From assembly GCA_963702005.1 (NCBI GenBank), contig OY969696.1, forward strand, positions 4,224,001-4,288,000: a DNA stretch of 64,000 nucleotides, in the 5' to 3' direction. The position numbers were made by a program, and so were the translations under genes. Each line of letters starts with the position of its first letter. The first letter of the stretch is position 1. Origin of the DNA: Candidatus Aminicenantes bacterium (GTDB lineage: Bacteria > Acidobacteriota > Aminicenantia > Aminicenantales > JAFGBC01). Below, in pieces: positions 659 to 15,173 of the stretch. The notes under the pieces are model-generated. The model was given only the letters and a program-made list of their open reading frames with translations, did not search any database and was not told the DNA's origin.

Positions 659-1102
659 TCAAACCTGGATCCTGCGCTCCTCCTTGACGACGTTGAGGAC
701 GATATGGGTGACGCTCCGGTCCACATAGCGGAGGACGAGGAGGTCCTTGATGAATTTGTTGAGGTCGTCGCGACCCCGGAAGTAGCCGACGATGAGGGAA
801 TCCCATTCCCCGGTCACGTCGTAGACGGCCATGACGCGGGGGTCCTCGGAGATTCTCTTCTGGGTTTCGAGGAGCTTGCCCTGGGAGATCCGGATGGCGA
901 TGACCGCGGCCAGGGACAACCCGAAGTGCTCCGGATTGACGTCGGGGACATAGCCGCGGATCGTCCCCCGGCTTTCCATGTCCTTGACTTTATGGATGAC
1001 GGCCGTCACCGATGACCCCACCTCGCGGGCGATCTCCCGGAAGCTCTTCCGGGCGTTCTCGTTCAGTGCCCTGACGATCTTCTTGTCCAGGTCGTCGATC
1101 AT
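659..1102 (-). CDS. Lrp/AsnC family transcriptional regulator
   Basis: IDDLDKKIVRALNENARKSFREIAREVG helix-turn-helix; VYDVTGEWD RAM domain. Confidence 0.95.
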   Translation of the reverse strand: MIDDLDKKIVRALNENARKSFREIAREVGSSVTAVIHKVKDMESRGTIRGYVPDVNPEHFGLSLAAVIAIRISQGKLLETQKRISEDPRVMAVYDVTGEWDSLIVGYFRGRDDLNKFIKDLLVLRYVDRSVTHIVLNVVKEERRIQV

Positions 1103-1286: not shown

Positions 1287-2690
1287 ATGCATTCCGATTC
1301 CCGTCCCCTGAAAGCTTTCGGCTTTAAGGACGTCCAGGAGGTTCTGGATACGGTTCTCGACCCCGAACATAAGATCGAGTTCATCCGGATCGTCTTCCCC
1401 GACATCCTGGGCCGGCCCATGGATTTCGCCTTCCCCGCCTCGGAACTCAAGGCTGCCTTCCGGGACGGGAAGGGCTTCGACGGCTCTTCGGTCGAGGGGT
1501 TCGTCCGGATCGAGGAAAGCGACCTCGTCATCAAGCCCGACCCGGCGACCTTCCGCGTCCTGCCCTGGACCTACCGGGGCTTTTCGGAGGAGGCCGTCTG
1601 GCGGGAGGGCGTGATGTTCGGCGACATCCTGACCCCGGAAGGCAAGCCTTACGAGGGCGACAGCCGGTACGTCCTCAAACGGATCCTGGCCATGGCCCGC
1701 CAGGACTTCGGCGTCGAGGACATCAAGTGTGGACCCGAGCTCGAGTTTTTCATCTTCCCCGACGACCGGACGCCCCGGGCGATCGACGAGGGCGGCTATT
1801 TCTTCGCGGGCCGCCACGGCGAGGTCCGCAAGGAAATCCAGCTCCTCCTCCATCGGATGGGGATCGAGACCGAATACGACCACCACGAGGTCGCCCACGG
1901 CCAGCACGAGATCGACCTCTGCTATCTCAGCGCCCTGGAGATGGCCGACACCGCCATGATCTTCCGCTACGTCGTCAAGAAGGTCGCCCGGATGCACGGC
2001 CTCTACGCGACGTTCATGCCCAAGCCCATCAACGGCCAAAACGGGAGCGGCATGCATGTCCATCAGTCCCTGTGGAAGGGGGGGAAAAACCTCTTTTTCG
2101 ACCCGGATCATCCCTACCGTCTATCCGAAATGGCCCGGGGCTACATGGCCGGGCTCCTGGCCCACGCCCGGGACATCTCGGCCGTCCTCAGCCAATGGAT
2201 CAACTCCTATAAACGCCTGATCGAAGGCTACGAGGCGCCCGTTTATATCGCCTGGGGACAGCGGAACCGCTCCGCCTACATCCGAGTCCCCGAGTACCAG
2301 CCCGGCAAGGAGCGGGCGACCCGGATCGAGCTCCGCTCGCCCGACCCGGCTTGTAACATCTACCTCGCCTTCGCCGCGATGTTCGGGGCCGGGCTGGCCG
2401 GCATCCGGGACGGCGAGCGGCTTCCCGACTCGGTAGAAGAAAACATATACCACATGAGCAACTCCCGGCAGAAGAAGTTCGAGATCCGGACCCTGCCCCG
2501 CAACCTCGAAGAAGCTCTCCGGGTCATGGAAAAGAGCCCCCTCGTCCGCGAAACCCTGGGCGTCTATCTTTTCGATCGCTTCCTGGCCAACAAGCGCTGC
2601 GAGCTCGAGGAGTACACGGCGAACGTCCCGGGCGAGTTCGACAAGCAGGTCAGCGAGTACGAGGTCCTCCGCTACCTGCCTTTCCTCTGA
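1287..2690 (+). CDS. glnA: Glutamine synthetase type I
   Basis: FDGSSVEGFVRIEESD, ELEFF, HHEVAHGQHEI, FMPKP-NGSGMHVHQSL, GYEAP, NRSAYIRVP, RIELRSPDP. Confidence 0.92.
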   Translation: MHSDSRPLKAFGFKDVQEVLDTVLDPEHKIEFIRIVFPDILGRPMDFAFPASELKAAFRDGKGFDGSSVEGFVRIEESDLVIKPDPATFRVLPWTYRGFSEEAVWREGVMFGDILTPEGKPYEGDSRYVLKRILAMARQDFGVEDIKCGPELEFFIFPDDRTPRAIDEGGYFFAGRHGEVRKEIQLLLHRMGIETEYDHHEVAHGQHEIDLCYLSALEMADTAMIFRYVVKKVARMHGLYATFMPKPINGQNGSGMHVHQSLWKGGKNLFFDPDHPYRLSEMARGYMAGLLAHARDISAVLSQWINSYKRLIEGYEAPVYIAWGQRNRSAYIRVPEYQPGKERATRIELRSPDPACNIYLAFAAMFGAGLAGIRDGERLPDSVEENIYHMSNSRQKKFEIRTLPRNLEEALRVMEKSPLVRETLGVYLFDRFLANKRCELEEYTANVPGEFDKQVSEYEVLRYLPFL

Positions 2691-2729
2691 TTGAATCATT
2701 AGGCTCGGCCGGCGGCTCGCCGGGCGGCC

Positions 2730-2758
2730 TTGACGATCCTAGATCCATGGCTTAGAAT
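2730..2758 (+). promoter_or_regulatory. sigma70-type promoter for DRTGG cassette
   Basis: TTGACG-17 bp-TAGAAT. Confidence 0.55.
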
Positions 2759-2809
2759 AATATCTAAGCGTAGGGGAAGATTATCCATCTTCCCTTCCGT
2801 CGTCAACCA

Positions 2810-3157
2810 ATGATGACCCTTAGAGAGATTCGAGACCTGCTCGGCGGGGAATTGCTTACGCCGGACTTGGATCTCGAGTCGGAATATTCAAAGGTTTTCG
2901 CTTCGGATCTGATGAGCGACGTCTTGGCCTACATGGACCCGGGATCGGTCCTGGTGACGGGACTGGTCAACGCCCATGTCGTCCGCACGGCCCGCCTGGC
3001 CGACGCCTCGGCCATCGTCCTCGTCCAGGGGAAACGTCCCGATGCGAAGGTCGTGGGCGAGGCCAGGCTCCACAATCTGCCGATCATCTCGACGGCCTGT
3101 TCCATGTTCGAAGCCTGCTCGAGAATCTCCCGCTCCTTTCCGGAAGGCGACCGATGA
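2810..3157 (+). CDS. DRTGG domain protein
   Basis: FASDLMSDVLA, LVTGLVNAHVVRTA; typical first gene of hydrogenase-associated regulatory cassettes. Confidence 0.85.
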   Translation: MMTLREIRDLLGGELLTPDLDLESEYSKVFASDLMSDVLAYMDPGSVLVTGLVNAHVVRTARLADASAIVLVQGKRPDAKVVGEARLHNLPIISTACSMFEACSRISRSFPEGDR

Positions 3158-3597
3158 GCGAAGACAACGCCCTTCGGCAGGAATTCCAGGTCAAGGGCGG
3201 AGATTTCAGCCGGGCCGGGGAAGTCTCCTGCGAGATCAAGAATCTTCTCAAGGAGATCGGCCTCAGCTCCCAGGTCGTCCGGCGCGCTGCGATCGCGGCC
3301 TACGAGGCCGAGATGAACATCATCATGTACGCCTGGCAGGGCCGTTTCGACCTGTCGGTCACCCCGGACCGGGTCCGGATCGTCGTCGAGGACAACGGCC
3401 CCGGCATCGAGGACGTCGAGCTGGCCCTGAGCGAGGGCTATTCGACGGCCACCCCGGAAATGCGGGAACTCGGGTTCGGCGCCGGTATGGGTCTCCCCAA
3501 CATCAAGAAGAACACCGACGACTTCCGGATCGTCTCGGAGGTTGGCCGGGGGACGCGGCTGGAATTGACGTTCCTGACCAACGGACATAAGCCATGA
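3154..3597 (+). CDS. Anti-sigma regulatory factor / RsbT-like Ser/Thr kinase (HATPase_c)
   Basis: YEAEMNI, EDNGPGI, GYSTA, GFGAGMGLPNI. Confidence 0.9.
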   Translation: MSEDNALRQEFQVKGGDFSRAGEVSCEIKNLLKEIGLSSQVVRRAAIAAYEAEMNIIMYAWQGRFDLSVTPDRVRIVVEDNGPGIEDVELALSEGYSTATPEMRELGFGAGMGLPNIKKNTDDFRIVSEVGRGTRLELTFLTNGHKP

Positions 3598-4868
3598 CGG
3601 AAACCAACCGCAACCCGCTTCATATCAACACGGAAAAGTGCATCGGGTGCGTTCACTGCCTGACGGCCTGTCCGACCAAGGCGATCCGGATTAAGAACGG
3701 AAAGGCCCTCATTTTCAACGAGCTGTGCATCGACTGCGGGGAATGCATCCGGTTCTGTCCCCGGGACGCTATCGATTCCCTGACGACCTCGTTCTCGGAC
3801 CTGAACGCCTTCAAATACAAGGTCGCCATCCCGGCGACCCCTCTCTACGGACAATTCGAGAATGCCACGCTCCCCAACGAGATTCTGTTCGCCCTGCGCC
3901 GGATCGGATTCGACTACGTCTACGAGCTCAGCACGATCTGCGAGCTCAACAACTCGGCCATCGAGAAATACATCGACAGCCACGCCAGGCCCCGGCCGCT
4001 CATCGCCTCAACCTGTCCCGTCGTCGTCCGCCTCATCCAGCGGCGTTTTCCTTCGCTCTGCGAACTGATCGTCCCGATCGAACCCCCGCGCGAGATCGCG
4101 GCCAAGATCCTGAGGGCCAATCTGCCCCGGGTTCTCAAGATCGCGCCCTCCGACATCGGCATCATCCACATCACGCCCTGCCCGGCGAAGATAGTCTCGA
4201 TCAACTACCCCGTCTCGATGGAAAAATCCTACCTGGACGGAGCTATCTCGATCCGGGACATCTACAACCCGATCTTTCAAGCCCTCCGGCAAAGCCAGGA
4301 AGATACGATCATGTGCCATCTCTTCCCGGAAACCCTCTTCAGCGGAATCGGGATGGGCACGGCCCTCTCGGGGGGAGAAACGCGGGGTCTCAAGCACCAT
4401 CGGACGGTCGCCGTTTCCGGAGTCCGGGATACGATCCGAGTTTTGGATCAGGTCGAAATGGGTCTTCTCAAAGACGTGGACCTCCTCGAGTGCACGGTCT
4501 GCCCGGATGGCTGCGTGGGAGGCCCGCTGGCCGTCGAAAACCGGTTCCTGGCGAAAAGCCGGATCTTGCGCTTGGTCGGCATGATGGGAGAACGGACCGT
4601 GGTCGACGACTCGGACATGAGCCAGCTCTATCATAAGGACTTCCTGTCTTTTCGCCATCCGGTGCAGCCCGTCCAGGCTCCTCCCCTCGACGGCGATCCC
4701 GCCCAGGCCATACAGAAGGCCAAGCGCCGAAACAAACTCATCAGACAGCTTCCGGGCAAAGACTGCGGGGCCTGCGGCGCTCCCGACTGCCGGACGTTGG
4801 CCGACGATGTCGTTCGCGGCCTGGCGCCCCTCTCCGATTGTCCGTTCACGAACAAGGAGAAAAAATGA
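3594..4868 (+). CDS. Putative sensory [FeFe]-hydrogenase-like protein (2x[4Fe-4S] + divergent H-domain + C-terminal FeS)
   Basis: CIGCVHCLTACP and CIDCGECIRFCP; H-cluster-like motifs ASTCP, TPCPAK, ECTVCPDGCVGG; C-terminal LPGKDCGACGAPDC. Confidence 0.8.
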   Translation: MTETNRNPLHINTEKCIGCVHCLTACPTKAIRIKNGKALIFNELCIDCGECIRFCPRDAIDSLTTSFSDLNAFKYKVAIPATPLYGQFENATLPNEILFALRRIGFDYVYELSTICELNNSAIEKYIDSHARPRPLIASTCPVVVRLIQRRFPSLCELIVPIEPPREIAAKILRANLPRVLKIAPSDIGIIHITPCPAKIVSINYPVSMEKSYLDGAISIRDIYNPIFQALRQSQEDTIMCHLFPETLFSGIGMGTALSGGETRGLKHHRTVAVSGVRDTIRVLDQVEMGLLKDVDLLECTVCPDGCVGGPLAVENRFLAKSRILRLVGMMGERTVVDDSDMSQLYHKDFLSFRHPVQPVQAPPLDGDPAQAIQKAKRRNKLIRQLPGKDCGACGAPDCRTLADDVVRGLAPLSDCPFTNKEKK

Positions 4869-5206
4869 ACCTGGCCGACATCGTCGAACGGCTTGAGCTC
4901 AAGGTCTACGCCGGGCGGTCGGAGATGGCGCGGACGGTCAGCGGCGGCTACGCGAGCGACCTCCTGAGCGACGTCATCGCCCACAGCCGGAAGGACCAGC
5001 TCTGGATCACTCTCCAGGTCCATCCCAATATCGTCGCGGTCGCCGCCCTCAAGGAGCTGGCGGCGATCGTTCTCGTCAACGGACGGGAACCCGCCGCCGA
5101 AACGACCGCGCGGGCGGACAAGGAGCGGATCCCCGTCTTGGGGACCCCTCTGAGCGCCTACGAATTCGTGGGGAGGGTCTATGGTCTGGGGCTCAAAGAA
5201 AAATAA
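4865..5206 (+). CDS. DRTGG domain protein
   Basis: GGYASDLLSDVIA, WITLQVHPNIVAVA; ATG at 4865 overlaps upstream stop, RBS AAGGAG. Confidence 0.85.
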   Translation: MNLADIVERLELKVYAGRSEMARTVSGGYASDLLSDVIAHSRKDQLWITLQVHPNIVAVAALKELAAIVLVNGREPAAETTARADKERIPVLGTPLSAYEFVGRVYGLGLKEK

Positions 5207-5952
5207 TGGCGCTCAGGCGCTTCCGGGCCGACCTCCATATCCATACTTGCCTGTCGCCCTGCGGAGAGCTGTCGATCTATCCGCGCAAGATCGTTGAGCG
5301 GGCCCTCGACCAGAAACTCCGGATCATCGCCGTCTGCGATCACAACACGGCGGAAAACGCGGCGGCGGTCCTCCAGGCCGCCCGCGGAACGGGGCTGACG
5401 GTCATCCCGGGCATGGAGCTGACCTCCGAGGAAGAAGTCCACATCCTGGGTCTGTTCCCGACCATGGACGATATCCTTCCCGTCCAGGAGGAGGTGTTCC
5501 GCGGGCTCCCGGCGCTCCCGGCCGAGGACAAATTCCTCAAGGATCAGGTCATCGTCAACGAGGATGACGAGGTCCTGGGTTTCAGCCCCCACTGTCTGTT
5601 CGGGGCGACCCGGCTGACCGTGTTCGAGGTCGTGGAGCTCATCCATCGGCGGAAGGGACTGGCGATCGCGTCCCATATCGACCGGGGAGCGTTCAGCATC
5701 ATCTCCCAGCTGGGGTTCATCCCTTCCGACCTCGAGCTCGACGCCCTCGAGGTCTCTCCCCTGATGACCATCCCCGAGGCCCGGGCGGCCCTCGCTCCTC
5801 CCCCCGACATCCCCCTGGTTCGTTTCTCCGATGCCCATTGCCCCGAGGAGATCGGCCGGACCACGACCGACCTCCTCCTGGCCGCCCCCGTCTTTGAAGA
5901 GGTCCGGATGGCCTTCAAGAGCGGAAAGGGACGGAGGGTCTGCGAACCATGA
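5206..5952 (+). CDS. PHP domain phosphoesterase
   Basis: DLHIHTCLSPC, CDHN, GMEL, EEVH, SHIDR, SDAH. Confidence 0.9.
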   Translation: MALRRFRADLHIHTCLSPCGELSIYPRKIVERALDQKLRIIAVCDHNTAENAAAVLQAARGTGLTVIPGMELTSEEEVHILGLFPTMDDILPVQEEVFRGLPALPAEDKFLKDQVIVNEDDEVLGFSPHCLFGATRLTVFEVVELIHRRKGLAIASHIDRGAFSIISQLGFIPSDLELDALEVSPLMTIPEARAALAPPPDIPLVRFSDAHCPEEIGRTTTDLLLAAPVFEEVRMAFKSGKGRRVCEP

Positions 5953-6494
5953 TGGAGGACCTGTCCCTTCACATTCTTGACATCGTCGAGAACGCCATCG
6001 CGGCCGGAGCGACCCGGATCTTCGTGACCGTGACCGAGGACGAACGACGGGACTTCCTCGGGATCCGCGTGTCGGACAACGGGCCGGGGATGTCGCAACG
6101 GACTCTCCGGAAGGCCCTCGACCCGTTCTTCACCACGAAGGGGAAGCGGACGGGGCTCGGGCTTCCGCTCCTGGCCCAGGCGGCCGAACATTGCGGCGGA
6201 AGAGTGACGATTCGCGCGGCGCTCAACAAAGGGACGAAAGTCGCGGCCCGTTTCCGGCACGGCCACATCGACCGGCCGCCCCTGACGAACATGAAGGGGA
6301 CTCTGATGGTCATCGTCCTCGGCCACGCCGAGATCGATCTCGTCTACCGCCACAGCCGGAACGGGCGCCTCTTCGAGTTCCGGAGCCGGCGCTATCTCAA
6401 GGCCCTTGGACTTTCCGCCGCCCTGACCCCGGATGCGATCCGGGGAGTCTCGGAAGCGCTGGAAGTCGGCCTGAGACGCATCGGGAGAACTTGA
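5949..6494 (+). CDS. Histidine-kinase-like ATPase (HATPase_c) protein
   Basis: DLSLHILDIVENA, DNGPGM, DPFFTTK, GLGLPLL, HIDRPPL. Confidence 0.88.
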   Translation: MMEDLSLHILDIVENAIAAGATRIFVTVTEDERRDFLGIRVSDNGPGMSQRTLRKALDPFFTTKGKRTGLGLPLLAQAAEHCGGRVTIRAALNKGTKVAARFRHGHIDRPPLTNMKGTLMVIVLGHAEIDLVYRHSRNGRLFEFRSRRYLKALGLSAALTPDAIRGVSEALEVGLRRIGRT

Positions 6495-6515
6495 AGGTTG
6501 CGGTCCGTGCTTGAC

Positions 6516-6545
6516 TTGACAAAGTCCGAATCGTTCTGCTATAAA
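6516..6545 (+). promoter_or_regulatory. sigma70-type promoter for the NuoE/F/G-like operon
   Basis: TTGACA-18 bp-TATAAA with extended TGn. Confidence 0.6.
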
Positions 6546-6637
6546 TCCAATCTCATTTTTATGTACGACGCATTTATTCTGAACCCAAACCAACATCCGC
6601 GGTCTGCTAACGATTTCCTAAAACGGGAGGGCTAGCC

Positions 6638-7156
6638 TTGGCTTTCAAGATCCAAAAAACTCAATCCATCATCAAAAAGCACAAGGGCCTTAAGAAGAAC
6701 CTGATCGCGATCCTGCTTGACGTCCAAACCGAGCACAAGTATCTGCCGCCGGAGGCCCTCCGTTATGTCGCCCAAGCGCTGGACATGCCCCTGATCGAGG
6801 TCATCGGTGTCGCAACATTCTACCGGGCCTTCAGCCTCACCCCGCGCGGCGAGCACACCTGCTTGATCTGCCTGGGGACGGCCTGTCATGTCCGGGGGGG
6901 ACCCAAGATCCTCGAGGAATTCGAACGGAAGCTCGAGGTCGAACCCGGCCAGACGACCAAGGACGGTCAGTTCACGCTGGAGACCGTCGCCTGCCTCGGC
7001 TGCTGCGCGATCGGCCCCGTCGTCGTCGTCGACGGAGAATACCACGGCCACGCCACGATCCGGAAGGTCAGCAAGATCCTGGAGAAATATCGGAAGCCGG
7101 AAGCGCCCCCGGCCAAGCCGCAGAAATCGAGTCCGGCCAAGAGCCTAGCGTCATGA
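6638..7156 (+). CDS. NuoE/HydC-like [2Fe-2S] subunit
   Basis: GVATFY, CLGTACHVRG, CLGCC; TTG start after GGGAGG. Confidence 0.9.
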   Translation: MAFKIQKTQSIIKKHKGLKKNLIAILLDVQTEHKYLPPEALRYVAQALDMPLIEVIGVATFYRAFSLTPRGEHTCLICLGTACHVRGGPKILEEFERKLEVEPGQTTKDGQFTLETVACLGCCAIGPVVVVDGEYHGHATIRKVSKILEKYRKPEAPPAKPQKSSPAKSLAS

Positions 7157-7173
7157 GGAGGATCACAAGAACC

Positions 7174-7656
7174 ATGCCAGTCAAAAAGTCTATTAAAATG
7201 AAGGACAAACCCAAAGCCGAGAAAAGGACTCCGAAAGCCACGGCCGTCCGGAAGGCGCGGCCGGTGGTCGAGAAGAAGAAACTCCGCATCCAGGATTTGG
7301 AAAGAATCCGGGAGAAAGCGCGGGCCACGGCCACGATCCGGGGCAGCGAGGGCCGGGCCAAGGTCACGGTCCACATGGGCACCTGCGGGATCGCCGCCGG
7401 CGCCCGCGATATCATGGACGCGCTCCTGGATGAAATGAAGGCCAAGGACGTCAAGGACGTCATCGTGACGACCTCGGGCTGCGCCGGGCTCTGCAACCGC
7501 GAGCCGATGGCCACGGTCGAGCTCAAGGACCAGCCGCCCGTGAAGTACGTCGACCTGACGCCCGACAAGATCCGCAAGATCCTGGTCGAGCACGCCCTGG
7601 GCGGCCATCCCGTCGTCGCCTACGCCCTGGCCATCGGAAGCGAAACCGCGTACTGA
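7174..7656 (+). CDS. Thioredoxin-like [2Fe-2S] ferredoxin subunit (HndB/HydD-like)
   Basis: VHMGTCGIAAGAR, SGCAGLCNREP; Lys-rich N-terminal extension, start uncertain. Confidence 0.82.
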   Translation: MPVKKSIKMKDKPKAEKRTPKATAVRKARPVVEKKKLRIQDLERIREKARATATIRGSEGRAKVTVHMGTCGIAAGARDIMDALLDEMKAKDVKDVIVTTSGCAGLCNREPMATVELKDQPPVKYVDLTPDKIRKILVEHALGGHPVVAYALAIGSETAY

Positions 7657-7665
7657 GAGGGATCC

Positions 7666-9483
7666 TTGAAACAACATCGAACTCACCTACTCGTATGCGC
7701 CGGGACGGGGTGCGTGTCCTGCGGATCCTTCAAGATCAAGGAGGCCCTCGAAAAGGAAATCCGAAAACGGGACCTCCAGGACGAGGTCCTCGTCATCGCC
7801 ACCGGCTGCAACGGATTCTGCGAGAGGGGCCCCATCCTGCTCGTCCAGCCGGACGGAATCTTCTACCAGCAGCTCAAGCTCGAGGACATTCCCCATCTCG
7901 TCGAAGAGCACTTCCTCAAGGGACGTCCCGTCAAGAAGCTGATGTACGTCCCGCCCGCCAAGAAAGAGCCGATCCCCAAGATGAAGGACATCGAGTTCTT
8001 CAAGCACCAGCGGCTCATCGTCCTCCGCAACCGCGGACGGATCGACCCGGAGAAGATCGACGAATACATCGGCTTCGATGGCTATGAGGCCATGGCCAAG
8101 GCCCTAACCGAGATGACGCCCGAACAAATCATCGCCGAGATCACCGCGTCCGGGTTGCGAGGCCGGGGCGGCGCCGGCTTCCCGACCGGCAAGAAATGGG
8201 AGACCTGCCGCCGCGAGAAGGCGACCCCCAAATACCTCATCTGCAACGGCGACGAGGGTGATCCGGGCGCGTTCATGGACCGCTCCGTCCTCGAGGCGGA
8301 CCCCCACGCCATCCTGGAGGGGATGGTCATCGGGGCCAAGGCGATCGGGGCCGGGAAAGGCTTCATCTACATCCGGAACGAATACCCCCTGGCCCTCCAG
8401 CGGGTCGAGATCGCCATCGGCCAGGCCAGGGACTACGGTCTGCTCGGGAAGGACATCCTGGGAACCGGATTCGCCTTCGATATCGAGATCGTCCAGGGCG
8501 CGGGCGCCTTCGTCTCCGGAGAGGAGACCGCCCTGATGGCCTCGGTCGAGGGGCGGATCGCTACCCCCCGTCAAAGGCCGCCCTTTCCCTCCCGGCAGGG
8601 CCTGTGGAAAAAGCCGACCACGATCAACAACGTCGAAACCTGGGCGACCGTCCCCAACATCATCCGGCGCGGCGCCAAATGGTTCGCCGGCCTCGGCACG
8701 GCGGCGAGCAAGGGAACGAAAATTTTCTCCCTGGTCGGCAAGATCAACAACACGGGCCTGGTCGAGGTCCCGATGGGGATCACCCTCCGGGACATCGTCT
8801 ACGGTATCGGCGGCGGCGTTCCCGGCGGCCGCGAGTTCAAGGCCATCCAGATCGGCGGGCCTTCGGGCGGCTGCATACCCCGCAAGCTCCTGGACCTCCC
8901 CGTCGACTACGAAAGCCTGACCGAGGCCGGGGCTATGATGGGGTCGGGCGGCATGATCGTCATGGACGACAGGACCTGCATGGTCGACATCGCCAAGTAC
9001 TTCATGAATTTCCTGCGCGATGAATCCTGCGGGAAATGCGTCTCCTGCCGGGAAGGGACCCAACGGATGTGGGAGATCGTCAAGGACATCACGGAGGGCA
9101 AGGGCAAGGAGAGCGACCTGGCCCTCCTGGAAGAGCTGGCCCAGACCTGCAAGGACGCCTCCCTGTGCGGCCTCGGCCAGACCGCGGCCAACCCCATCCT
9201 GTCGACGCTCCAGTATTTCCGCCATGAGTACGAAGCCCACATCACGGACAAGCGCTGTCCGGCCGGCGTCTGCCCGGCCCTCATCCGCTATCTGGTCATC
9301 GCCGAGAAGTGCACGGGCTGCCTAGCCTGCAAGAACGCCTGCCCAACCCAAGCCATCAAGGGGACGCGCTCGGACATCCATTCGATCGATCAGACGAAGT
9401 GCATCAAATGCGGCGCCTGCCTGGAAGCCTGCCGCTTCGACGCCATCGAAACGCGTCGCGACGAGGCCATTCAGATCATTTAA
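7666..9483 (+). CDS. NuoF/HydB-like FMN/NADH-binding subunit with N-terminal [2Fe-2S] and C-terminal 2x[4Fe-4S]
   Basis: CAGTGC-GCNGFC, GLRGRGGAGFPTG, NGDEGDPGAFMDR, GAFVSGEETAL, GGPSGG, CGKCVSCREG, CPAGVC, two CxxCxxCxxxC motifs. Confidence 0.93.
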   Translation: MKQHRTHLLVCAGTGCVSCGSFKIKEALEKEIRKRDLQDEVLVIATGCNGFCERGPILLVQPDGIFYQQLKLEDIPHLVEEHFLKGRPVKKLMYVPPAKKEPIPKMKDIEFFKHQRLIVLRNRGRIDPEKIDEYIGFDGYEAMAKALTEMTPEQIIAEITASGLRGRGGAGFPTGKKWETCRREKATPKYLICNGDEGDPGAFMDRSVLEADPHAILEGMVIGAKAIGAGKGFIYIRNEYPLALQRVEIAIGQARDYGLLGKDILGTGFAFDIEIVQGAGAFVSGEETALMASVEGRIATPRQRPPFPSRQGLWKKPTTINNVETWATVPNIIRRGAKWFAGLGTAASKGTKIFSLVGKINNTGLVEVPMGITLRDIVYGIGGGVPGGREFKAIQIGGPSGGCIPRKLLDLPVDYESLTEAGAMMGSGGMIVMDDRTCMVDIAKYFMNFLRDESCGKCVSCREGTQRMWEIVKDITEGKGKESDLALLEELAQTCKDASLCGLGQTAANPILSTLQYFRHEYEAHITDKRCPAGVCPALIRYLVIAEKCTGCLACKNACPTQAIKGTRSDIHSIDQTKCIKCGACLEACRFDAIETRRDEAIQII

Positions 9484-9491
9484 GAGGGACC

Positions 9492-10184
9492 ATGATCACC
9501 TTTCGCATGAACAACATGATGGTCCAGGCCGAGGAAGGCTGGACAATCCTCGAGACGTCCAAATTTTACGGCCTGGAGATTCCGACCCTTTGCTACCACG
9601 AGGGGCTGACGCCCTGGGGCGGCTGCCGCCTGTGCGTCGTCGAGATCGGCGAAGGCCCCAAGACCAAGCTCGCCTCCTCCTGCACCTACCCGGCCGAGGA
9701 GGGCATCGTCGTCCGCACGGACACCAAGCGGGTTTGGGCAGCCCGGCGGATGATGGTCGAGCTCATGCTTGCCATGGCGCCGGGCTCGAAGCAGCTCCAG
9801 GACCTCGCCTCCCAGTTCGGGGTCACCCAGGTCCGCTTCAAGCCCAAGAACGAGGAGTGCATCCTGTGCGGGCTGTGCGTCCGGATGTGCGCGGAGCAGA
9901 TGGACGGCCGGGCGATCGGGTTCCAGAACCGGGGCCACCGGCGGAAGATTTCGACGCCGTTCGACATCCGCTCCGAGGAGTGCCGCCTGTGCGGAGCCTG
10001 CATCTACATTTGCCCGGCCTGTCAGCTCCGCTGCCAGGGCCCCCAGGCCGAGACGGTCCTCTGCAACGGCTGTCTGACGATGGACCCGACCTGTCTGGAC
10101 CACTTCGACGACCTCCAATGCTGGATGTATGACGCCGGGCGGTGCGGAACGTGCGTCCGCGAAAAACCGACGGCGGGGAAATGA
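9492..10184 (+). CDS. NuoG/HydA N-terminal-like Fe-S subunit with no catalytic domain and a Cys-rich tail
   Basis: IPTLCYH-GGCRLC-SC [2Fe-2S]; CILCGLCVRMC; CRLCGACIYICP; 8 further Cys; ATG 9492 after GAGGGA. Confidence 0.85.
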   Translation: MITFRMNNMMVQAEEGWTILETSKFYGLEIPTLCYHEGLTPWGGCRLCVVEIGEGPKTKLASSCTYPAEEGIVVRTDTKRVWAARRMMVELMLAMAPGSKQLQDLASQFGVTQVRFKPKNEECILCGLCVRMCAEQMDGRAIGFQNRGHRRKISTPFDIRSEECRLCGACIYICPACQLRCQGPQAETVLCNGCLTMDPTCLDHFDDLQCWMYDAGRCGTCVREKPTAGK

Positions 10185-10260
10185 ACCGGAGAACGGCTCA
10201 GCCACTTCCATGAACCGGATGACCGATAGACAAATCAGGAACTAACAAGGAGGAACGGAC

Positions 10261-11841
10261 ATGTCTTACACGAAGCTCAATCGAAGCGCGGCGACCCTGA
10301 CCAAGAACAGAACCAAGGGATCGATCAGCCCCTTCAGCGGGATGTGCGTGACCTGTGTGGACGGCTGCATCGGGATGTGCGAGATCGGGAAATCCGCCTA
10401 CCGCGGGACCGAGGTCCTTTATCCCCAGCCGTTCGGCCTGATCACGGCCGCCAGCGAAAAGGACTACCCGGTCGACCTGTCCCACTTCAGCATCATGGGC
10501 ACGGCCGCCGGCGCCTACGGCGTCGAGGCCGACAGCGACAAGGCGACCTTCGAGAAGGTCACGACCGAAACCCGGATCGGCCGCGACAAGGGGATCAAGC
10601 TCCGGCTCCCGTTCGTCCTCGCCGGGATGGGATCGACGAACATCGCCCGGCAGAACTGGACCGGGCTGGCCGCCGGCACGGCCATCTCGGGCTGCATCCT
10701 GACCATCGGCGAGAACGTCTGCGGCATGGACGAGGGAACCGAGATCCGCAACGGCCGGGTCGTCCGCTCGCCCGACATGGAGTTCCGGATCAAGAGCTTC
10801 ACGGACTGGCGGGACCAGGGCTACGGGGCCGTCGTCGTCCAGGCCAACGTCGAGGATACCCGGCTCGGCGTCCAGGAATACGTCATCGAGAAATTGGGCA
10901 TCGAGATCGTCGAGCTCAAGTGGGGGCAGGGCGCCAAGGACATCGGCGGCGAGGTCAAGATCAAGAACCTCAAGAAGGCCCAGCAGCTCAAGAGCCGCGG
11001 CTACATTGTCCTTCCCGACCCCGATGATCCGAACATCATCGCGGCCTTCGAGAAAGGAAGCTTCAAGGAGTTCGAACGACACTCCCGCCTCGGCATGGTC
11101 GAGGAGGAAGGTTTCTACAAACGGGTCGAGGAGCTCCGCAAGGCCGGCGCCAAGTACGTCTTCCTCAAGACGGGCGCCTATCGGCCGGCCGACCTGGCCC
11201 GGGCCGTCAAGTTCGCCTCCAAGGCCAAGATCGACATGCTGACCGTGGACGGCGCCGGAGGCGGAACGGGCATGAGCCCCTGGCGGATGATGAACGAATG
11301 GGGCGTCCCCGTCGTGGAGATCTGGAGCCTGACCTACAAATACGCCCATCAACTCGCCCAAGCCGGCGAGTACGTTCCGGACATCATCCTGGCCGGCGGC
11401 GTGACCTTCGAGGACCAGATCTTCAAGGGCCTCGCCCTGGGCGCGCCCTACGTCAAGGGCGTCGGCATGGCCCGCAGCCCGATGGCGGCGGCCATGGTCG
11501 GCAAGACGATCGGCAAGCGGATCGACGAGGGCCAGATTCCGGTCTACATCGAACGGTTCGGCAACTCGGTCGACGAGATCTTCATCACCGGGCCTGATCT
11601 CAAGCGGAAGTACAAGGACCGCTTCAAGGACCTCCCGACCGGCGCTATCGGCGTCTACACCTACTTCCACCGCCTCAGCCAGGGCCTGCGCCAGCTCATG
11701 GCCGGCGCCCGCAAGTTCGCGCTCCACTACATCACCCGGGACGACATCGCCTCCCTGACCAAGGACGCCGCGAACATCTCGGGCATTCCCTACATCCTGG
11801 ACGTCGACAAGGACGAGGTGGCCAAGATCCTCAAGGGCTGA
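10261..11841 (+). CDS. FMN-binding glutamate synthase family protein (stand-alone FMN-domain type)
   Basis: ELKWGQGAKDIGG, VFLKTG, VDGAGGGTG, ILAGG, GLALGA; N-terminal CVTCVDGCIGMC; RBS AAGGAGG. Confidence 0.88.
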   Translation: MSYTKLNRSAATLTKNRTKGSISPFSGMCVTCVDGCIGMCEIGKSAYRGTEVLYPQPFGLITAASEKDYPVDLSHFSIMGTAAGAYGVEADSDKATFEKVTTETRIGRDKGIKLRLPFVLAGMGSTNIARQNWTGLAAGTAISGCILTIGENVCGMDEGTEIRNGRVVRSPDMEFRIKSFTDWRDQGYGAVVVQANVEDTRLGVQEYVIEKLGIEIVELKWGQGAKDIGGEVKIKNLKKAQQLKSRGYIVLPDPDDPNIIAAFEKGSFKEFERHSRLGMVEEEGFYKRVEELRKAGAKYVFLKTGAYRPADLARAVKFASKAKIDMLTVDGAGGGTGMSPWRMMNEWGVPVVEIWSLTYKYAHQLAQAGEYVPDIILAGGVTFEDQIFKGLALGAPYVKGVGMARSPMAAAMVGKTIGKRIDEGQIPVYIERFGNSVDEIFITGPDLKRKYKDRFKDLPTGAIGVYTYFHRLSQGLRQLMAGARKFALHYITRDDIASLTKDAANISGIPYILDVDKDEVAKILKG

Positions 11842-13306
11842 GCGTGAAGGACCGCTCCTGCCAGCACGAAGCATGGCCGTTGGGGTCCATGCTCGAAACG
11901 ACGTAAAAGTAGGGGACGCCGGTCCGCAGGCCGCGGAGCTCGACGGCATGCGGGAGCGTAAAGGTCCGGCTGTAGGACGATAGACTCGAGAGGAAGCCGG
12001 ACTTGGTCCCATAAATGACGACGCCGTCGCAGGGCTTGTCCGTGGTCCACTCGATCGAGGCTAAATCCCCGCGCAGGACGTGACGGATGCCCGATAGGAC
12101 GGGGTTTGCGGGTTTTTCCTGGTAATGATCGTCAATGAGCTTGAACGCTTTCTTCAACTGCTCGAAGCACTTGTTGGGCTGGGTAGCGGTGGCATAGACG
12201 TCTTGGTCCTTGTTCCAGCCCAAGCCGTGAAGTTCGAACTCGACGATCAGCTCGGCGATCGCCTCGGGATTATTGGCCTCGCCGCACCGGCTCTGCAGGC
12301 CGGCGATCTGCCCGTAGAGGGGGATGCCGGCCGCCCGGCAGCGGTCCGCCAACTGTTTCAGGAATTCCCGGCGCACTTTGATCCCAAGGCCCGCGTACTG
12401 GGCGACCAGGCCGAGCTCCCGGCATTTCTCGATCAGCCAAAAATTCCTGGCCATCTGTCTCAAGGCGGGATGGACCTTGCCTTTATGGATGAAGTCCTCC
12501 CGGTGGGCGTCCGCGTCGTCCGAGCCGGCGGGATAGACGACGAGCTTCTGATGGGGCTTGAGGCGAGGGAGGATCGTCTGGATGGTCCACAGGACGAATT
12601 CGTCCTTGACGTCCCGGTACCAATCGATGAAGTCGGCGCGGCTGGACGTCGTCAACGACTTGAAACGGGCGGGCTCGGGGACTTCGACCTCGCCGAACGT
12701 CCCGTAGCCGGTTCCCCAGGCTGCGTTCAGCGCCGAGACATCCCGCCCATATTTCTCTTGCATCCGGGCCCGAAAATCCGCGCGGGCCAGCGGATCGTAG
12801 CACCAGAAATACTTGGGGTCGGGATAGTTGGGCTCATTATGCCGCCCCATCGAGGCCTTGACGAACAGGATCAACGGGGCCCATTTGTCGAGGCACAGAG
12901 AAAAGCATCGGTCGATAAACTTTGCCGTCTGGGGCTTGAGCTGGGGATGCCAAAGGCTGATGGGCGCGGATTGAACCCGATCCGGGAGCGGCTCTCCGAC
13001 GGGCTCGTTCCGTTCGTTCAAGTGCCGGGCGTCGGGATACTTCTCCCAGAACCATTTCGGAGCCATCAGGGAGCAAAGCGTGATGTCCAGCCTCAAGCCC
13101 GTGGCGGCGATGGTCGAGATGATATCATCGAAATAGGAGAAATCGAACCTCCCCTCTTCCTTCTCGACCTCGCTCCAGGGAATCCAGAGCCGGACGAACC
13201 TGGCCCCGATGGCCTTGAGGTCCTCCATCCGTCGCCGCAGGGCCGGAAAATTCCTCTTGATAAAATAATACCAAGCCCCCGCCGAATTCCTGGGTGCGAC
13301 CATCAT
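11831..13306 (-). CDS. Glycoside hydrolase (GH42/beta-galactosidase-like TIM barrel) with C-terminal Fn3-like domain
   Basis: VRLWIPWSEVEKEEGRFDFSYFD, PKWFWEKYP, NEP, KYG-LNAAWGT; C-terminal WTTD-HAVELRGL-YFYVV. Confidence 0.72.
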   Translation of the reverse strand: MMVAPRNSAGAWYYFIKRNFPALRRRMEDLKAIGARFVRLWIPWSEVEKEEGRFDFSYFDDIISTIAATGLRLDITLCSLMAPKWFWEKYPDARHLNERNEPVGEPLPDRVQSAPISLWHPQLKPQTAKFIDRCFSLCLDKWAPLILFVKASMGRHNEPNYPDPKYFWCYDPLARADFRARMQEKYGRDVSALNAAWGTGYGTFGEVEVPEPARFKSLTTSSRADFIDWYRDVKDEFVLWTIQTILPRLKPHQKLVVYPAGSDDADAHREDFIHKGKVHPALRQMARNFWLIEKCRELGLVAQYAGLGIKVRREFLKQLADRCRAAGIPLYGQIAGLQSRCGEANNPEAIAELIVEFELHGLGWNKDQDVYATATQPNKCFEQLKKAFKLIDDHYQEKPANPVLSGIRHVLRGDLASIEWTTDKPCDGVVIYGTKSGFLSSLSSYSRTFTLPHAVELRGLRTGVPYFYVVSSMDPNGHASCWQERSFTLSP

Positions 13307-13485
13307 GTTCGTTCCCCCCTTTATTCCCTTCGAAACATTCTTATTTTATACCCAAACCGGCGCCAAATGCACGGGCTTCCGAGAAGAAAGAGAGCTTTTC
13401 CGTTCGTATAACAAGAAGGCTTTAAAAGCCCGCGCGCCCTTTCTTCTTGGCTTCCGATATGCTATAAATAGCGAGGATTTAAGCT

Positions 13486-14166
13486 ATGGGTATCGTCAAC
13501 ATCGTCATCAGCCTGTTCGTCCTGCTGTTCGCCATCACCGTCCATGAGGCGTCCCACGCTTGGACCGCCAACAAGTTCGGCGACCCGACGGCGGCGGCCT
13601 TGGGCCGGGCCTCCCTCAATCCCCTCGCCCACATCGATCCGATCGGGACCATCCTCCTCCCCATCCTCCTCGTCCTGATCCGGGCGCCCGCCTTCGGCTG
13701 GGCCAAACCCGTTCCCGTCAACCCTTACAACCTCCGCGACCCGCGCCGCGACAACATCTGGATCTCGGCCGCCGGCCCGATATCAAACATAACCGTCGCC
13801 TTCATCTCCTTCGTGGCGATTCTCCTCCTCAAGGTCATCCGGCCGGGGGTCGTCGACTTCCTGCGGAATTTTCTGCTCGGCCAGGGGAGCCGCCCCCCCG
13901 GCATCTATCCGCTCGAGGGGCTGGCCCTCGTCCTTTTCTACGCCGTCCTGGTCAATACCTATCTGGCCGTCTTCAACCTCATCCCCGTCCCGCCCCTGGA
14001 CGGGAGCGGCGTCCTGATGGGGCTCCTGCCCTACGAGGCCGCCCAGCGCTTTGAACGAATCCGGCCCTTCGGCTTCATCATCGTCCTCCTCCTGATCTCG
14101 ATCGGGGTCCTGGACATCATCATCCGGCCGATCGAACTCCTCATTTTCGCCTTCATCTTCGGTTGA
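13486..14166 (+). CDS. Site-2 protease (M50) membrane metalloprotease
   Basis: HEASH, GDPT, GWAKPVPVNP, FNLIPVPPLDG. Confidence 0.93.
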   Translation: MGIVNIVISLFVLLFAITVHEASHAWTANKFGDPTAAALGRASLNPLAHIDPIGTILLPILLVLIRAPAFGWAKPVPVNPYNLRDPRRDNIWISAAGPISNITVAFISFVAILLLKVIRPGVVDFLRNFLLGQGSRPPGIYPLEGLALVLFYAVLVNTYLAVFNLIPVPPLDGSGVLMGLLPYEAAQRFERIRPFGFIIVLLLISIGVLDIIIRPIELLIFAFIFG

Positions 14167-14176
14167 GGGACAATTT

Positions 14177-15169
14177 ATGAACGGAGCAACCAAGAAGACC
14201 GTCCTGAGCGGCGTCCGGCCGACCGGCCCCGCCCACTTGGGAAACTACGTCGGCGCCTTCCGGAACTGGCTCCGCCTCCAGGACGAATACCGCTGCTTCT
14301 ATTCGATCGTGACCTGGCACGCCCTGACCTCGGAATACGCCAATTCGAAGGTCCTCAAGGGCTATACGTTGGAGGTCGCGACCGACCTCCTCAGCCTGGG
14401 TCTCGACCCCAAGAGGTGCGTCCTGTTCAACCAGTCCGAAGTCAAGGAGCACGCCGAGCTTCATCTCCTCCTGTCCATGATCGTCCCCCTGCCCTGGCTG
14501 GAGCGGGTCCCGACCTTCAAGGAACAGCAGGAGGAGCTGGCCGATAGGGACCTCAACACTTACGGATTCCTGGGCTACCCGCTCCTCCAGACGGCCGATA
14601 TCGTCATCTACAAGGCCGACATCGTCCCGGTCGGCGAGGACCAGGTCTATCACGTGGAGCTGGCCCGCGAGATCGTCCGCCGCTTCAACCGCCTCTATGC
14701 CCCGGTCTTCCCCGAGCCCCAAACCCTGCTGACCGAAATTCCCAAGCTGGCCGGCACCGACGGACGCAAGATGAGCAAATCCTACGGAAACGCCATCTAC
14801 CTCAAGGACACGGCCGAGGAGATCCGGCGCAAGATCGCGCCCATGGTCACCGACACCCGGCGCAAGCGCCGTTCCGACCCGGGCGAACCGGACGACTGCC
14901 CCGTCTTCACGCTCCATCGCGCCTTCGTCGAGGCCGCCAAGCGGGATGCGGTCGCCGCCGAGTGCCGCAAGGCGGGGATCGGCTGCCTTGAGTGCAAGAA
15001 CGTCGTCATCCAAGCCATCGTCGACCTTCTGACCCCCTACTGGGACAAGCGGGCCGACTTCGAAAGGAACCCGCGGGCCGTCTGGGACATTCTCGAGGAC
15101 GGAAACGCCCGGGCCCGCGAAGCCGCCCGGAAGACGATGGCCGAGGTCCGGGACGCCATCGGCATCTGA
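14177..15169 (+). CDS. trpS: Tryptophan--tRNA ligase
   Basis: SGVRPTG-HLGNY, GYPLLQTADI, VPVGEDQ, KMSKS. Confidence 0.97.
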   Translation: MNGATKKTVLSGVRPTGPAHLGNYVGAFRNWLRLQDEYRCFYSIVTWHALTSEYANSKVLKGYTLEVATDLLSLGLDPKRCVLFNQSEVKEHAELHLLLSMIVPLPWLERVPTFKEQQEELADRDLNTYGFLGYPLLQTADIVIYKADIVPVGEDQVYHVELAREIVRRFNRLYAPVFPEPQTLLTEIPKLAGTDGRKMSKSYGNAIYLKDTAEEIRRKIAPMVTDTRRKRRSDPGEPDDCPVFTLHRAFVEAAKRDAVAAECRKAGIGCLECKNVVIQAIVDLLTPYWDKRADFERNPRAVWDILEDGNARAREAARKTMAEVRDAIGI

Positions 15170-15173
15170 GGTC

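Follow-up and report, generated by a model that had tools for sequence, protein, structure and literature searches.

The stretch of DNA analysed here, referred to as the window, comprises 64,000 nt from the genome of Candidatus Aminicenantes bacterium, an uncultured anaerobe (GenBank assembly GCA_963702005.1, contig OY969696.1, positions 4,224,001 to 4,288,000). It contains a run of genes that starts with glnA, encoding glutamine synthetase, continues with a sensor-like cassette and an electron-input module, and ends with a gene for a protein related to the flavin mononucleotide (FMN) domain of glutamate synthase (GOGAT), designated GltBl. Judged from its sequence, the electron-input module is of the Bfu type, and it is quite likely that it forms a Bfu-type complex with GltBl as catalytic subunit. 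The fuller proposal, that five proteins of the window make up a BfuABC-family iron-sulfur flavoenzyme in which GltBl catalyses the NADH- and ferredoxin-linked amination of 2-oxoglutarate with ammonia, appears about evenly balanced. Taken separately, glutamate formation as the reaction has slightly less than even chances, and true bifurcation or confurcation of electrons is somewhat less probable still. The five proteins in question are encoded by the following genes:

6638..7156, + strand: BfuC, a NuoE/HydC-like [2Fe-2S] subunit of 172 amino acids (aa); Pfam 2Fe-2S_thioredx, 171.7 bits
7153..7656, + strand: HydD-like small thioredoxin-like [2Fe-2S] protein, 167 aa; Pfam 2Fe-2S_thioredx, 25.2 bits
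7666..9483, + strand: BfuB, a HydB-type NADH-binding FMN subunit, 605 aa; Complex1_51K, SLBB, NADH_4Fe-4S, Fer4 and N-terminal 2Fe-2S_thioredx
9492..10184, + strand: short BfuA with [2Fe-2S] and two [4Fe-4S] motifs, 230 aa; Pfam Fer2_4 and Fer4_7 only
10261..11841, + strand: GltBl, an FMN TIM-barrel protein of 526 aa; Pfam Glu_synthase (PF01645), 61.3 bits

In the definition of the BfuABC family (PMC9304861), BfuB combines Nuo51 FMN-binding, SLBB, NuoF [4Fe-4S] and 4Fe-4S ferredoxin-type domains (IPR011538, IPR019554, IPR019575, IPR017896), BfuC contains a NuoE-type domain (IPR002023), and BfuA at least 2Fe-2S and 4Fe-4S ferredoxin-type domains. Applying our own mapping of Pfam models to these InterPro entries, all of them were detected in the window proteins. 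BfuB matched Complex1_51K (158 bits), NADH_4Fe-4S (117 bits) and Fer4 over the cut-offs, and SLBB with 24.4 bits, slightly below the Pfam cut-off of 27 bits. The NuoE-type domain was found in BfuC, which was also matched by the NCBIfam models for HoxE/NuoE below their cut-offs, and BfuA contained Fer2_4 (55.7 bits) and Fer4_7 (33.6 bits).

More specific evidence came from BfuB. The NuoF-like motifs named in the original prediction were all present, GAFMDR at residue 201, GGPSGG at 397 and CPAGVC at 531, as were N-terminal cysteines at positions 11, 16, 48 and 52 and two C-terminal CxxCxxCxxxC motifs (549-559 and 579-589). Residues 3-594 could be aligned with eight solved bifurcating BfuB subunits, yielding 694-840 bits: 7t2r_B (NiFe-HydB, the best match with 840 bits), HydB 7q4v_B, 8a6t_B and 7p5h_B, WorB 9mqx_B (738 bits), NfnB 9n5u_B (727 bits), 9bov_B and 8oh5_B. 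Chains of the non-bifurcating NuoF and FdsB proteins aligned with the core of BfuB only, at 395 bits or less, and the extra N- and C-terminal cluster domains of BfuB (B2-B5) are absent from them. That this HydB architecture is the one of bifurcating complexes was therefore correctly anticipated, since BfuB is collinear with the solved bifurcating subunits from end to end.

For the A subunit, an end before any catalytic domain had been predicted. No H-cluster domain (Fe_hyd_lg_C) was found in the 230-aa BfuA with Pfam and NCBIfam models, and the NCBIfam models FeFe_hydrog_A6 and HoxU were matched over their first approximately 200 positions only. To this extent the description holds, but the protein is not a plain truncated HydA; it is a short BfuA resembling WorA and equipped with an additional cysteine motif. 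Its best solved relative is WorA (9mqx_A, 247 aa; E value 6e-34, or 1.2e-48 with a profile), and the region of the His-ligated cluster shown by HydA 8a6t_A is missing. At the C-terminus, C181, C191, C194, C201 and C210 are invariant in all 33 aligned homologues, whereas WorA has no cysteine wherever the BfuA tail aligns, which is to about residue 197. These cysteines may hold an additional cluster where electrons leave BfuA. Type-2 Bfu enzymes have a short BfuA lacking the A3 and A5 clusters and one or more separate catalytic subunits; the module of the window, with its WorA-like BfuA and separate GltBl gene, may correspond to this type, but its BfuA has the extra motif. With only three cysteines (78, 110 and 114), the HydD-like protein may have an incomplete cluster site or rely on a different ligand; among the 100 loci described below, its gene is found only together with genes of the cassette. 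BfuC of the window, with 172 aa, is short compared with the NuoE/BfuC frames of many other phyla, which extend over about 280 aa and have the NuoE domain within residues 1-150 (for example L090:5214-6062).

If GltBl works with this module, the genes should occur together in other genomes. Two sets of loci were compared, 20 from genomes of the same order and the best 80 of 592 relatives confirmed in one species-representative scan; at least two loci are common to both sets (L016/L036 and L017/L030). The scan was performed with an alignment of six GltBl sequences, an earlier one of 12 sequences being too divergent, and the window proteins were mapped onto the fetched loci by tblastn. BfuA is encoded immediately upstream of GltBl in all 20 same-order loci and in 77 of the 80 others, which belong to many bacterial and archaeal phyla. 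Two of the exceptions, L054 and L101, end at a contig edge, and in the third, L095 from Hakubella, GlnA is encoded directly upstream of GltBl (L095:8612-11569), with no Bfu genes in 10 kb upstream. An upstream NuoF gene was seen in all 20 same-order loci and in 68 of the 80; of the 12 loci lacking it, ten are cut off by contig ends, and L032 and L095 are true exceptions, L032 (9432-11575) harboring BfuA and GltBl without NuoE or NuoF within 9.4 kb upstream. The gene arrangement is not due to chance, its order recurring in 97 of 100 loci, and the survey of gene neighbourhoods proposed as a check of the original prediction showed the GltB-like gene to be the conserved partner of the module, so that the lack of conservation named there as a refutation does not apply. 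Named among the bacterial loci are Aminicenantes, Zixibacteria, Planctomycetota, Bacteroidota, Ignavibacteria, Dehalococcoidia, Syntrophales, Smithella, Syntrophorhabdus, Dethiobacter, Elusimicrobiota and Latescibacterota, and among the archaeal ones Thermoplasmata, Methanobacteriota and Altiarchaeales; at a broader level, the carriers include Chloroflexota and syntrophic Deltaproteobacteria. Divergent paralogs of GltBl, 48-60% identical to that of the window, adjoin the main operon in three loci (L043:4129-5706, L084:10270-11853 and L092:12192-13772); their hosts are Dethiobacter, an Altiarchaeales genome and a metagenome-assembled genome (MAG) of Actinomycetota.

These comparisons also revealed two architectures of NuoF. 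Seven of the 20 and 26 of the 68 loci have an unfused form like that of the window. The others, 13 of 20 and 41 of 68, encode a fused form of about 1050 aa, in which a GltD-like module (Fer4_20 and Pyr_redox_2) replaces the C-terminal ferredoxin-type domain, except for one locus with the NuoF and GltD-like parts on different frames. Both forms retain the N-terminal [2Fe-2S] domain, most tblastn alignments of fused proteins starting at query residues 1-10. Fused forms may have traded ferredoxin for NADPH. A HydB with a GltA/GltD-like domain has been described in archaeal hybrid hydrogenases (PMC11216029), which have no GltB-like subunit.

GltBl itself is a genuine, if divergent, homologue of the glutamate synthase FMN domain, also called the synthase domain. 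Its match to Pfam Glu_synthase clearly exceeds the cut-off of 20.4 bits. A profile built from an alignment of 53 GltBl sequences was compared by hhalign with the canonical archaeal-type GltB FMN subunit from a Dethiobacter MAG (L120:5602-7110, 392 bits with PF01645), giving a probability of 95.7% over GltBl residues 25-428. In this alignment, ELKWGQGAK..GGE was paired with IKIGQGAKPGIGG..GE, and TVDGAGGGTGMSP with YLDGFRGGSGATP, showing that the glutamate synthase motifs KxxQGAK and DGxGGTG are retained. Near the N-terminus, C29-x2-C32-x3-C36-x3-C40 (CxxCx3Cx3C) is invariant and aligns with one CxxCxxCxxxCP of the N-terminal ferredoxin domain of the canonical subunit. Amidotransferase, central and GXGXG domains were not found in GltBl by Pfam. 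When the canonical sequence is mapped onto 2vdc/1llw, the 2-oxoglutarate-binding residues of Synechocystis GltS, Q969, K972, Q978 and R992, coincide with Q, K, Q and R in the sequence of GltS, and Q223 and K226 of GltBl match the positions mapping to Q969 and K972. In the AlphaFold2 (AF2) model of GltBl, mean pLDDT was 87, and the first hit of this model in Foldseek was GltS (1ofd_A).

Sequence relatives of GltBl are numerous. More than 8000 candidates were recorded, the best 120 clusters being 81-100% identical, and identity to relatives from other phyla is still 67-72%. At the 50% clustering level, just 183 representatives score below 1e-30, which marks GltBl as a compact and distinct family. 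Three further approaches added little. When the PDB was searched with a profile from the GltBl alignment, designed TIM barrels ranked first and GltS had an E value of 0.07, a result regarded as uninformative; a look-up in the ESM Atlas returned the family's own names only; and prediction of a two-chain complex of BfuA and GltBl gave a score of 0.02 against a mark of 0.32, which is evidence neither way.

The surroundings of GltBl point to glutamate and nitrogen metabolism. Open reading frames (ORFs) of the 80 loci were clustered and recurrent clusters were named by Pfam:

Sigma-54 response regulator: 21 of 80 loci
GAF/HisKA kinase, partner of the sigma-54 regulator: 17 of 80 loci
Glutamate dehydrogenase (GDH): 15 of 80 loci
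117-aa protein without known function: 10 of 80 loci
GlnA: 7 of 80 loci
NrpR: 5 of 80 loci
Lrp: 5 of 80 loci

GDH genes are co-directional and directly 3' of GltBl in L041, L045, L047, L048, L055 and L085, and co-directional upstream in L041 (a second copy), L046, L066 and L070. In L103, glnA lies downstream of GltBl. The NrpR family comprises 2-oxoglutarate-responsive nitrogen repressors. Among the 20 same-order loci, an Lrp-glnA pair precedes the module in 12, and several GDH genes are located within a few kilobases. Between the sigma-54 regulator and NuoE, a small protein of about 90-150 aa without Pfam match is encoded in 10 of 80 loci (L049:4727-5182, L053:4823-5176 and eight others).

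Canonical GOGAT components are apparently missing from the genome that contains the window, a single contig of 4.31 Mb estimated to be 94% complete. GATase_2 and GXGXG were not found there, with 13 and 14, respectively, of 14 control genomes positive, and PF01645 gave two weak hits only. The second of these (26 bits, C1:2540322-2540576) lies in a frame of 502 aa, and similar frames of about 475 aa, about 30% identical to GltBl, occur in relatives. Among 41 genomes of the order, GXGXG was detected in three and GltBl in 35. Glutamine synthetase was detected in 26 of 30 tested carriers of GltBl from diverse groups, and 19 of these 26 are without GXGXG.

From these results a route for electrons may be proposed. 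NADH would be oxidised at the FMN of BfuB, and ferredoxin would interact at the C-terminal domains of BfuB and BfuC, both as in solved Bfu enzymes. Electrons would then pass through the [2Fe-2S] and the two [4Fe-4S] clusters of BfuA to the extra cluster of its family-specific C-terminal cysteines, and from there via the N-terminal four-cysteine cluster of GltBl to its FMN. At this site, 2-oxoglutarate and free ammonia would be converted to glutamate, corresponding to the synthase half-reaction of GOGAT minus the glutaminase, and the organism, which lacks canonical GOGAT, would use this enzyme jointly with the neighbouring glutamine synthetase to assimilate ammonium. Two schemes are conceivable: NADH and reduced ferredoxin could be confurcated onto GltBl to form glutamate, or NADH could be the bifurcating donor, delivering electrons downhill to GltBl and uphill to ferredoxin. 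The couple 2-oxoglutarate+NH4+/glutamate has a potential of about -0.1 V. Glutamate can therefore not reduce NAD+ and ferredoxin, which leaves the reductive direction as the sole plausible one; an oxidatively operating bifurcating glutamate dehydrogenase, which the original prediction had also considered, is implausible on thermodynamic grounds.

Several observations weigh against this proposal, and four other explanations have to be considered with them. One supposes that the Bfu module serves a hydrogenase or formate dehydrogenase encoded elsewhere and that the GltB-like gene is an unrelated neighbour. Matches to [NiFe]-hydrogenase large subunits at four places of the genome, a molybdopterin BfuA, and the knowledge of this cassette type beside [FeFe]-hydrogenases speak for it. 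The BfuA-GltBl adjacency across phyla speaks against it, and so do the four NuoF paralogs of the genome as far as they were examined, which adjoin partners of their own. One lies in a second Bfu cluster (C1:1382251-1389247, - strand in its locus), where a 617-aa BfuB, 74% identical to that of the window, is accompanied by its own NuoE and a molybdopterin BfuA of 749 aa, followed at the 3' side by NfnA-like and NfnB/GltD-like genes. Another, with its own NuoE and BfuA-like genes, is located just before a [NiFe] large subunit gene (C1:382305), and a short one of 453 aa is followed by a NuoG-like gene. Scanning with Fe_hyd_lg_C detected two proteins in the genome, the sensor of the window and a 695-aa protein fused to HisKA/HATPase_c (C1:1316638-1318725), both of the sensor type, and no catalytic [FeFe]-hydrogenase. 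HydE, HydF and HydG were not found above the cut-offs of TIGR03955, TIGR03918 and TIGR03956, for which controls were positive in two of 14 named genomes. A partner elsewhere, which the original prediction had named as a possible refutation, is thus left with hardly any probability. A glutamine-dependent GOGAT, in which an unrelated amidotransferase or glutaminase would act in trans and the GS-GOGAT cycle would be closed with glnA, is very unlikely. It would account for glnA being adjacent here and in 12 of 20 relatives as well as next to GltBl in L095 and L103, and for the many GS-bearing carriers without a GXGXG protein. Against it, GltBl has neither the central nor the GXGXG domain for an ammonia tunnel, and no amidotransferase gene is among the conserved neighbours in the 80 loci. 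Scanning the genome for GATase_2 revealed no glutaminase partner of GltBl, which counts against the glutamine-dependent reaction and also against a role of GltBl as a glutamate synthase.

The main chemical rival is a different substrate and the main mechanistic rival a linear NAD(P)H enzyme. In the former, the same complex would act on another 2-oxo, 2-imino or 2-hydroxy acid or on a nitrogen metabolite, the nitrogen context reflecting regulation or a linked pathway. The Glu_synthase match of GltBl is limited to residues 279-408 and no NCBIfam model matches the protein. In the hhalign alignment, the segment of Q978 is deleted, R992 faces a non-conserved glutamine (Q241), five residues before a nearly invariant R246, and the canonical CxC...CxxC...C [3Fe-4S] stretch after the barrel faces a segment free of cysteines. 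The nearly invariant residues 271-276, F-E-R-H-S-R, form an insertion relative to the canonical sequence. In Foldseek, type 2 isopentenyl diphosphate isomerase (IDI-2), flavocytochrome b2, glycolate oxidase and IMP dehydrogenase (IMPDH) were within a factor of ten of the E value for GltS, the structural matches to 2-hydroxy-acid oxidases/dehydrogenases and IDI-2 equalling or beating it; since several FMN-barrel families match alike, the substrate of GltBl cannot be read from structure alone. Paralogous GltBl copies beside the main one (L043, L084 and L092) and the coexistence with canonical GOGAT point in the same direction. GXGXG was found over its cut-off in 11 of 35 diverse GltBl-bearing genomes, a complete split GOGAT occurs alongside GltBl in Dethiobacter, and a GltB-like pair is present in G016. 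GDH was detected in 40 of the 41 genomes of the order, which can therefore make glutamate without this enzyme. In a sample of 151 genomes of the phylum, including one unpublished genome (G124) and relatives that are not independent of each other, GXGXG was present in 65 of 136 GltBl-negative and three of 15 GltBl-positive genomes, indicating that absence of GOGAT is common there regardless of GltBl. A simple displacement of GOGAT by GltBl was rejected, as the order mostly lacks GXGXG with or without GltBl and the anticorrelation in the phylum is weak and confounded by kinship; the pattern serves as supporting context only. Nevertheless, a different substrate appears somewhat unlikely, because glutamate synthase is the sole matching sequence family, QGAK/GGE and DGxGGTG are retained, and the neighbouring GDH, GlnA, NrpR and Lrp genes in several phyla centre on 2-oxoglutarate, glutamate and glutamine. 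In a linear enzyme, the NuoEF-type module would feed an iron-sulfur wire to GltBl, ferredoxin would be uninvolved, and the Bfu hallmarks would be inherited. Reduction of 2-oxoglutarate and NH4+ by NADH is already exergonic, so that coupling is not needed, and the GltD-like module in 41 of 68 loci, as in the small subunit of canonical NADPH-GOGAT, indicates that ferredoxin may be dispensable. A third substrate of such high potential is atypical for Bfu enzymes, judged from the characterised ones with substrates of low or mid potential, such as H2, formate, NADPH and aldehydes (PMC9304861); in the main text of that survey no glutamate-linked class is mentioned, and the word glutamate occurs 0 times. 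A linear enzyme is still considered unlikely. The BfuB of the window keeps the N-terminal [2Fe-2S], CPAGVC and C-terminal 2x[4Fe-4S] features, all of which separate bifurcating BfuBs from NuoF and FdsB, the N-terminal domain is retained even in fused forms, and unfused NuoF persists in 26 of 68 loci from many phyla.

Upstream of the NADH- and ferredoxin-linked module proposed here, and following its 3' end, further genes were identified:

659..1102, - strand: Lrp/AsnC-family regulator, divergent from glnA; Pfam HTH_AsnC-type and AsnC_trans_reg
1287..2690, + strand: glnA, glutamine synthetase, 467 aa; Pfam Gln-synt_C (378.6 bits) and Gln-synt_N
2810..3157, + strand: DRTGG-domain protein, cassette gene 1; Pfam DRTGG
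3154..3597, + strand: histidine-kinase-like ATPase, 147 aa; Pfam HATPase_c / HATPase_c_2; start overlaps the preceding stop codon
3594..4868, + strand: M2e/group-D HydS-type sensory [FeFe]-hydrogenase-like protein, 424 aa; two Fer4, Fe_hyd_lg_C and C-terminal PF04060
4838..5206, + strand: second DRTGG-domain protein; Pfam DRTGG, 24.9 bits, slightly below the cut-off of 25.2
5206..5952, + strand: PHP-domain protein, putative phosphoesterase; Pfam PHP
5949..6494, + strand: second HATPase protein, hisK-like; Pfam HATPase_c, 63 bits
11831..13306, - strand: GH42-like gene, convergent, overlapping the last GltBl codons

From glnA through GltBl, twelve genes follow each other on the + strand. Pfam and NCBIfam scans of the window proteins and the ORF listing bear out every gene of the co-directional run that had been predicted; the Lrp/AsnC gene lies outside the range 1287-11841 given for the prediction. 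Most cassette genes overlap their neighbours by 1-31 bases, and gaps of 8, 9 and 76 bases were noted within the core from NuoE to GltBl. The longest frame for BfuA, from 9309, overlaps nuoF; an ATG at 9492, 8 bases past the nuoF stop, yields the protein of 230 aa. An AAGGAGG ribosome-binding site precedes the ATG of GltBl. GltBl forms the 3' end of the operon, which is closed by the convergent GH42-like gene. A consensus scan, which is weak evidence, gave a sigma-70-like promoter match at 2730-2758, and no terminator-like site on the + strand between 2690 and 11841 was found in a promoter/terminator scan of equally weak weight. Sigma-54 promoters, searched in the window with the consensus as generally known, were discarded, as 19 matches compared with 35 expected by chance and none fell into relevant intergenic regions. 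Three metatranscriptome runs of one study contained a single match of 32 bases (10990-11021) and were uninformative on co-transcription. Two long antisense ORFs without family match, 10198-12012 (- strand, 604 aa) and 12125-13411 (+ strand, 428 aa), most likely arise by chance on the strand opposite to genuine genes, the DNA being GC-rich. Genes for an M50 peptidase, tryptophanyl-tRNA synthetase (TrpS), ScpA and ScpB are located 3' of the locus (13486-16672). M50 and TrpS are downstream of GltBl in most same-order relatives with sufficient flank, and since the GH42-like gene lies between GltBl and M50 in the window, it may be an insertion.

The HydS-like protein shows the M2e/group-D layout, with two N-terminal [4Fe-4S] motifs, an H-domain, a C-terminal Cx2Cx4Cx16C motif and no PAS domain. 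At the position of the proton-transfer cysteine, group A [FeFe]-hydrogenases have the motif TSCCP; in the window protein, as in TamHydS-like M2e sensors, this position is not conserved, the sequence being STCP. The remaining layout, including the absence of a PAS domain, is likewise shared with TamHydS, which is encoded upstream of a bifurcating [FeFe]-hydrogenase beside a kinase-like ATPase (PMC8163306), and this agrees with the predicted usual position of such cassettes. In contrast to TamHydS, the cassette of the window precedes an enzyme that is not a hydrogenase, and its genome lacks the H-cluster maturases, making an H2-binding cofactor doubtful. Without HydEFG, the sensor probably reports the redox state via its iron-sulfur clusters and not H2 via an H-cluster; both HydS-type proteins of the genome may work without H-cluster. 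Association of the cassette with the GltBl operon was seen in four same-order loci out of 20 (L010, L022, L023 and L027) and in L029, L038, L047 and L104 of the 80 others, sometimes downstream of GltBl. In all eight, the second DRTGG gene is conserved, and the HydD-like gene is always present. HydG above the cut-off was absent from all five other cassette-bearing genomes tested. In a quick NuoF tree, midpoint-rooted without outgroup and lacking complex-I and NiFe-linked paralogs because of a coverage filter, the BfuBs of cassette loci form one clade (SH-aLRT 100) that includes the BfuB of the molybdopterin cluster. Nesting of the latter among cassette-linked, GltBl-associated BfuBs suggests module exchange; for want of an outgroup no direction of transfer was drawn.

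Among known systems, WorABCSL of Acetomicrobium mobile, a Type-2 Bfu enzyme (9mqx; PMC12318220), is similar in having BfuC, BfuB, a short BfuA of about 240 aa and a separate catalytic subunit. In their shared part, WorA and the BfuA of the window carry only the [2Fe-2S] and two ferredoxin-type [4Fe-4S] motifs. The partner of WorABC is a tungstopterin aldehyde oxidoreductase with a polyferredoxin, whereas that in the window is an FMN TIM-barrel protein belonging to the family of glutamate synthases, its third substrate is probably one of much higher potential, and the five invariant cysteines at the BfuA C-terminus are additional. With HydABC and NiFe-HydABCSL (7p5h, 7q4v, 8a6t and 7t2r), the window shares a BfuB collinear over 590 residues and, as common gene context of HydABC-type hydrogenases, hisK-like and HydD-like accessory genes and a HydS-type cassette (PMC9304861, PMC8163306); it differs by the lack of an H-cluster domain, of [NiFe] subunits and of the His-ligated BfuA cluster in a genome without HydE, HydF and HydG. 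Compared with GOGAT, either bacterial GltB/GltD or the split archaeal type, GltBl is homologous to the FMN domain with QGAK and DGxGGTG, the system is linked to glnA, and in 41 of 68 loci of other genomes the operon also encodes a GltD-like flavin adenine dinucleotide (FAD)/NADPH module as a fusion with NuoF. In GltBl, however, amidotransferase, central and GXGXG domains are missing and the [3Fe-4S] motif is replaced by the N-terminal four cysteines, and in the window, where there is no GltD, electrons would arrive via the NuoE/NuoF/BfuA module. NfnABC and StnABC transhydrogenases (9n5u; PMC12018979) combine a BfuBC core with a GltD-like NADPH/FAD module, as do the fused variants of the GltBl system. 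The GltD-like domain belongs to BfuA in the transhydrogenases, whereas it forms the NuoF C-terminus in relatives of GltBl and is absent from the window; moreover, the window system always has GltBl as an additional FMN subunit.

Third substrates named in the Bfu survey are H2, formate, NADPH, F420, aldehydes, CO, pyruvate, benzoyl-CoA, quinone and H2O2, and 17 BfuB clades were left unassigned there (PMC9304861). No published account of a Bfu enzyme with a GltB-like subunit emerged from a full-text literature search, which did not extend to the PMC9304861 supplementary tables, where these BfuBs may be listed. As judged from the genes, the system is a real and conserved Bfu-family member of Type-2-like character, unpublished as far as searched, and has a predicted glutamate-synthase-like catalytic subunit and ties to nitrogen metabolism.

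Bfu enzymes are central to anaerobic energy metabolism, and a member serving nitrogen assimilation would be a new functional class with an unusually high-potential third substrate. The widest interpretation, which is fairly unlikely, sees a widespread and undescribed ammonium assimilation in anaerobes without GOGAT, consisting of a Bfu flavoenzyme that uses NADH and ferredoxin, a glutaminase-free glutamate synthase and a HydS-type sensor as switch. Low-potential electrons would then replace ATP in pulling in scarce ammonia, or the excess energy of reductive amination would be conserved as ferredoxin reduced by NADH, and the sensor, reading the redox state without H-cluster, would tie nitrogen assimilation to the ferredoxin/H2 economy. 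What "sensory hydrogenases" actually sense is a further question, posed by the HydS-type sensor of a genome that lacks the maturases. The gene set, present in hundreds of genomes as judged from the 592 confirmed relatives, probably links nitrogen assimilation to low-potential electrons. Since many carriers have glutamine synthetase but no recognisable GOGAT, the system could explain how nitrogen assimilation is closed in these organisms, and in this case the metabolic reconstructions of many uncultured lineages would change.

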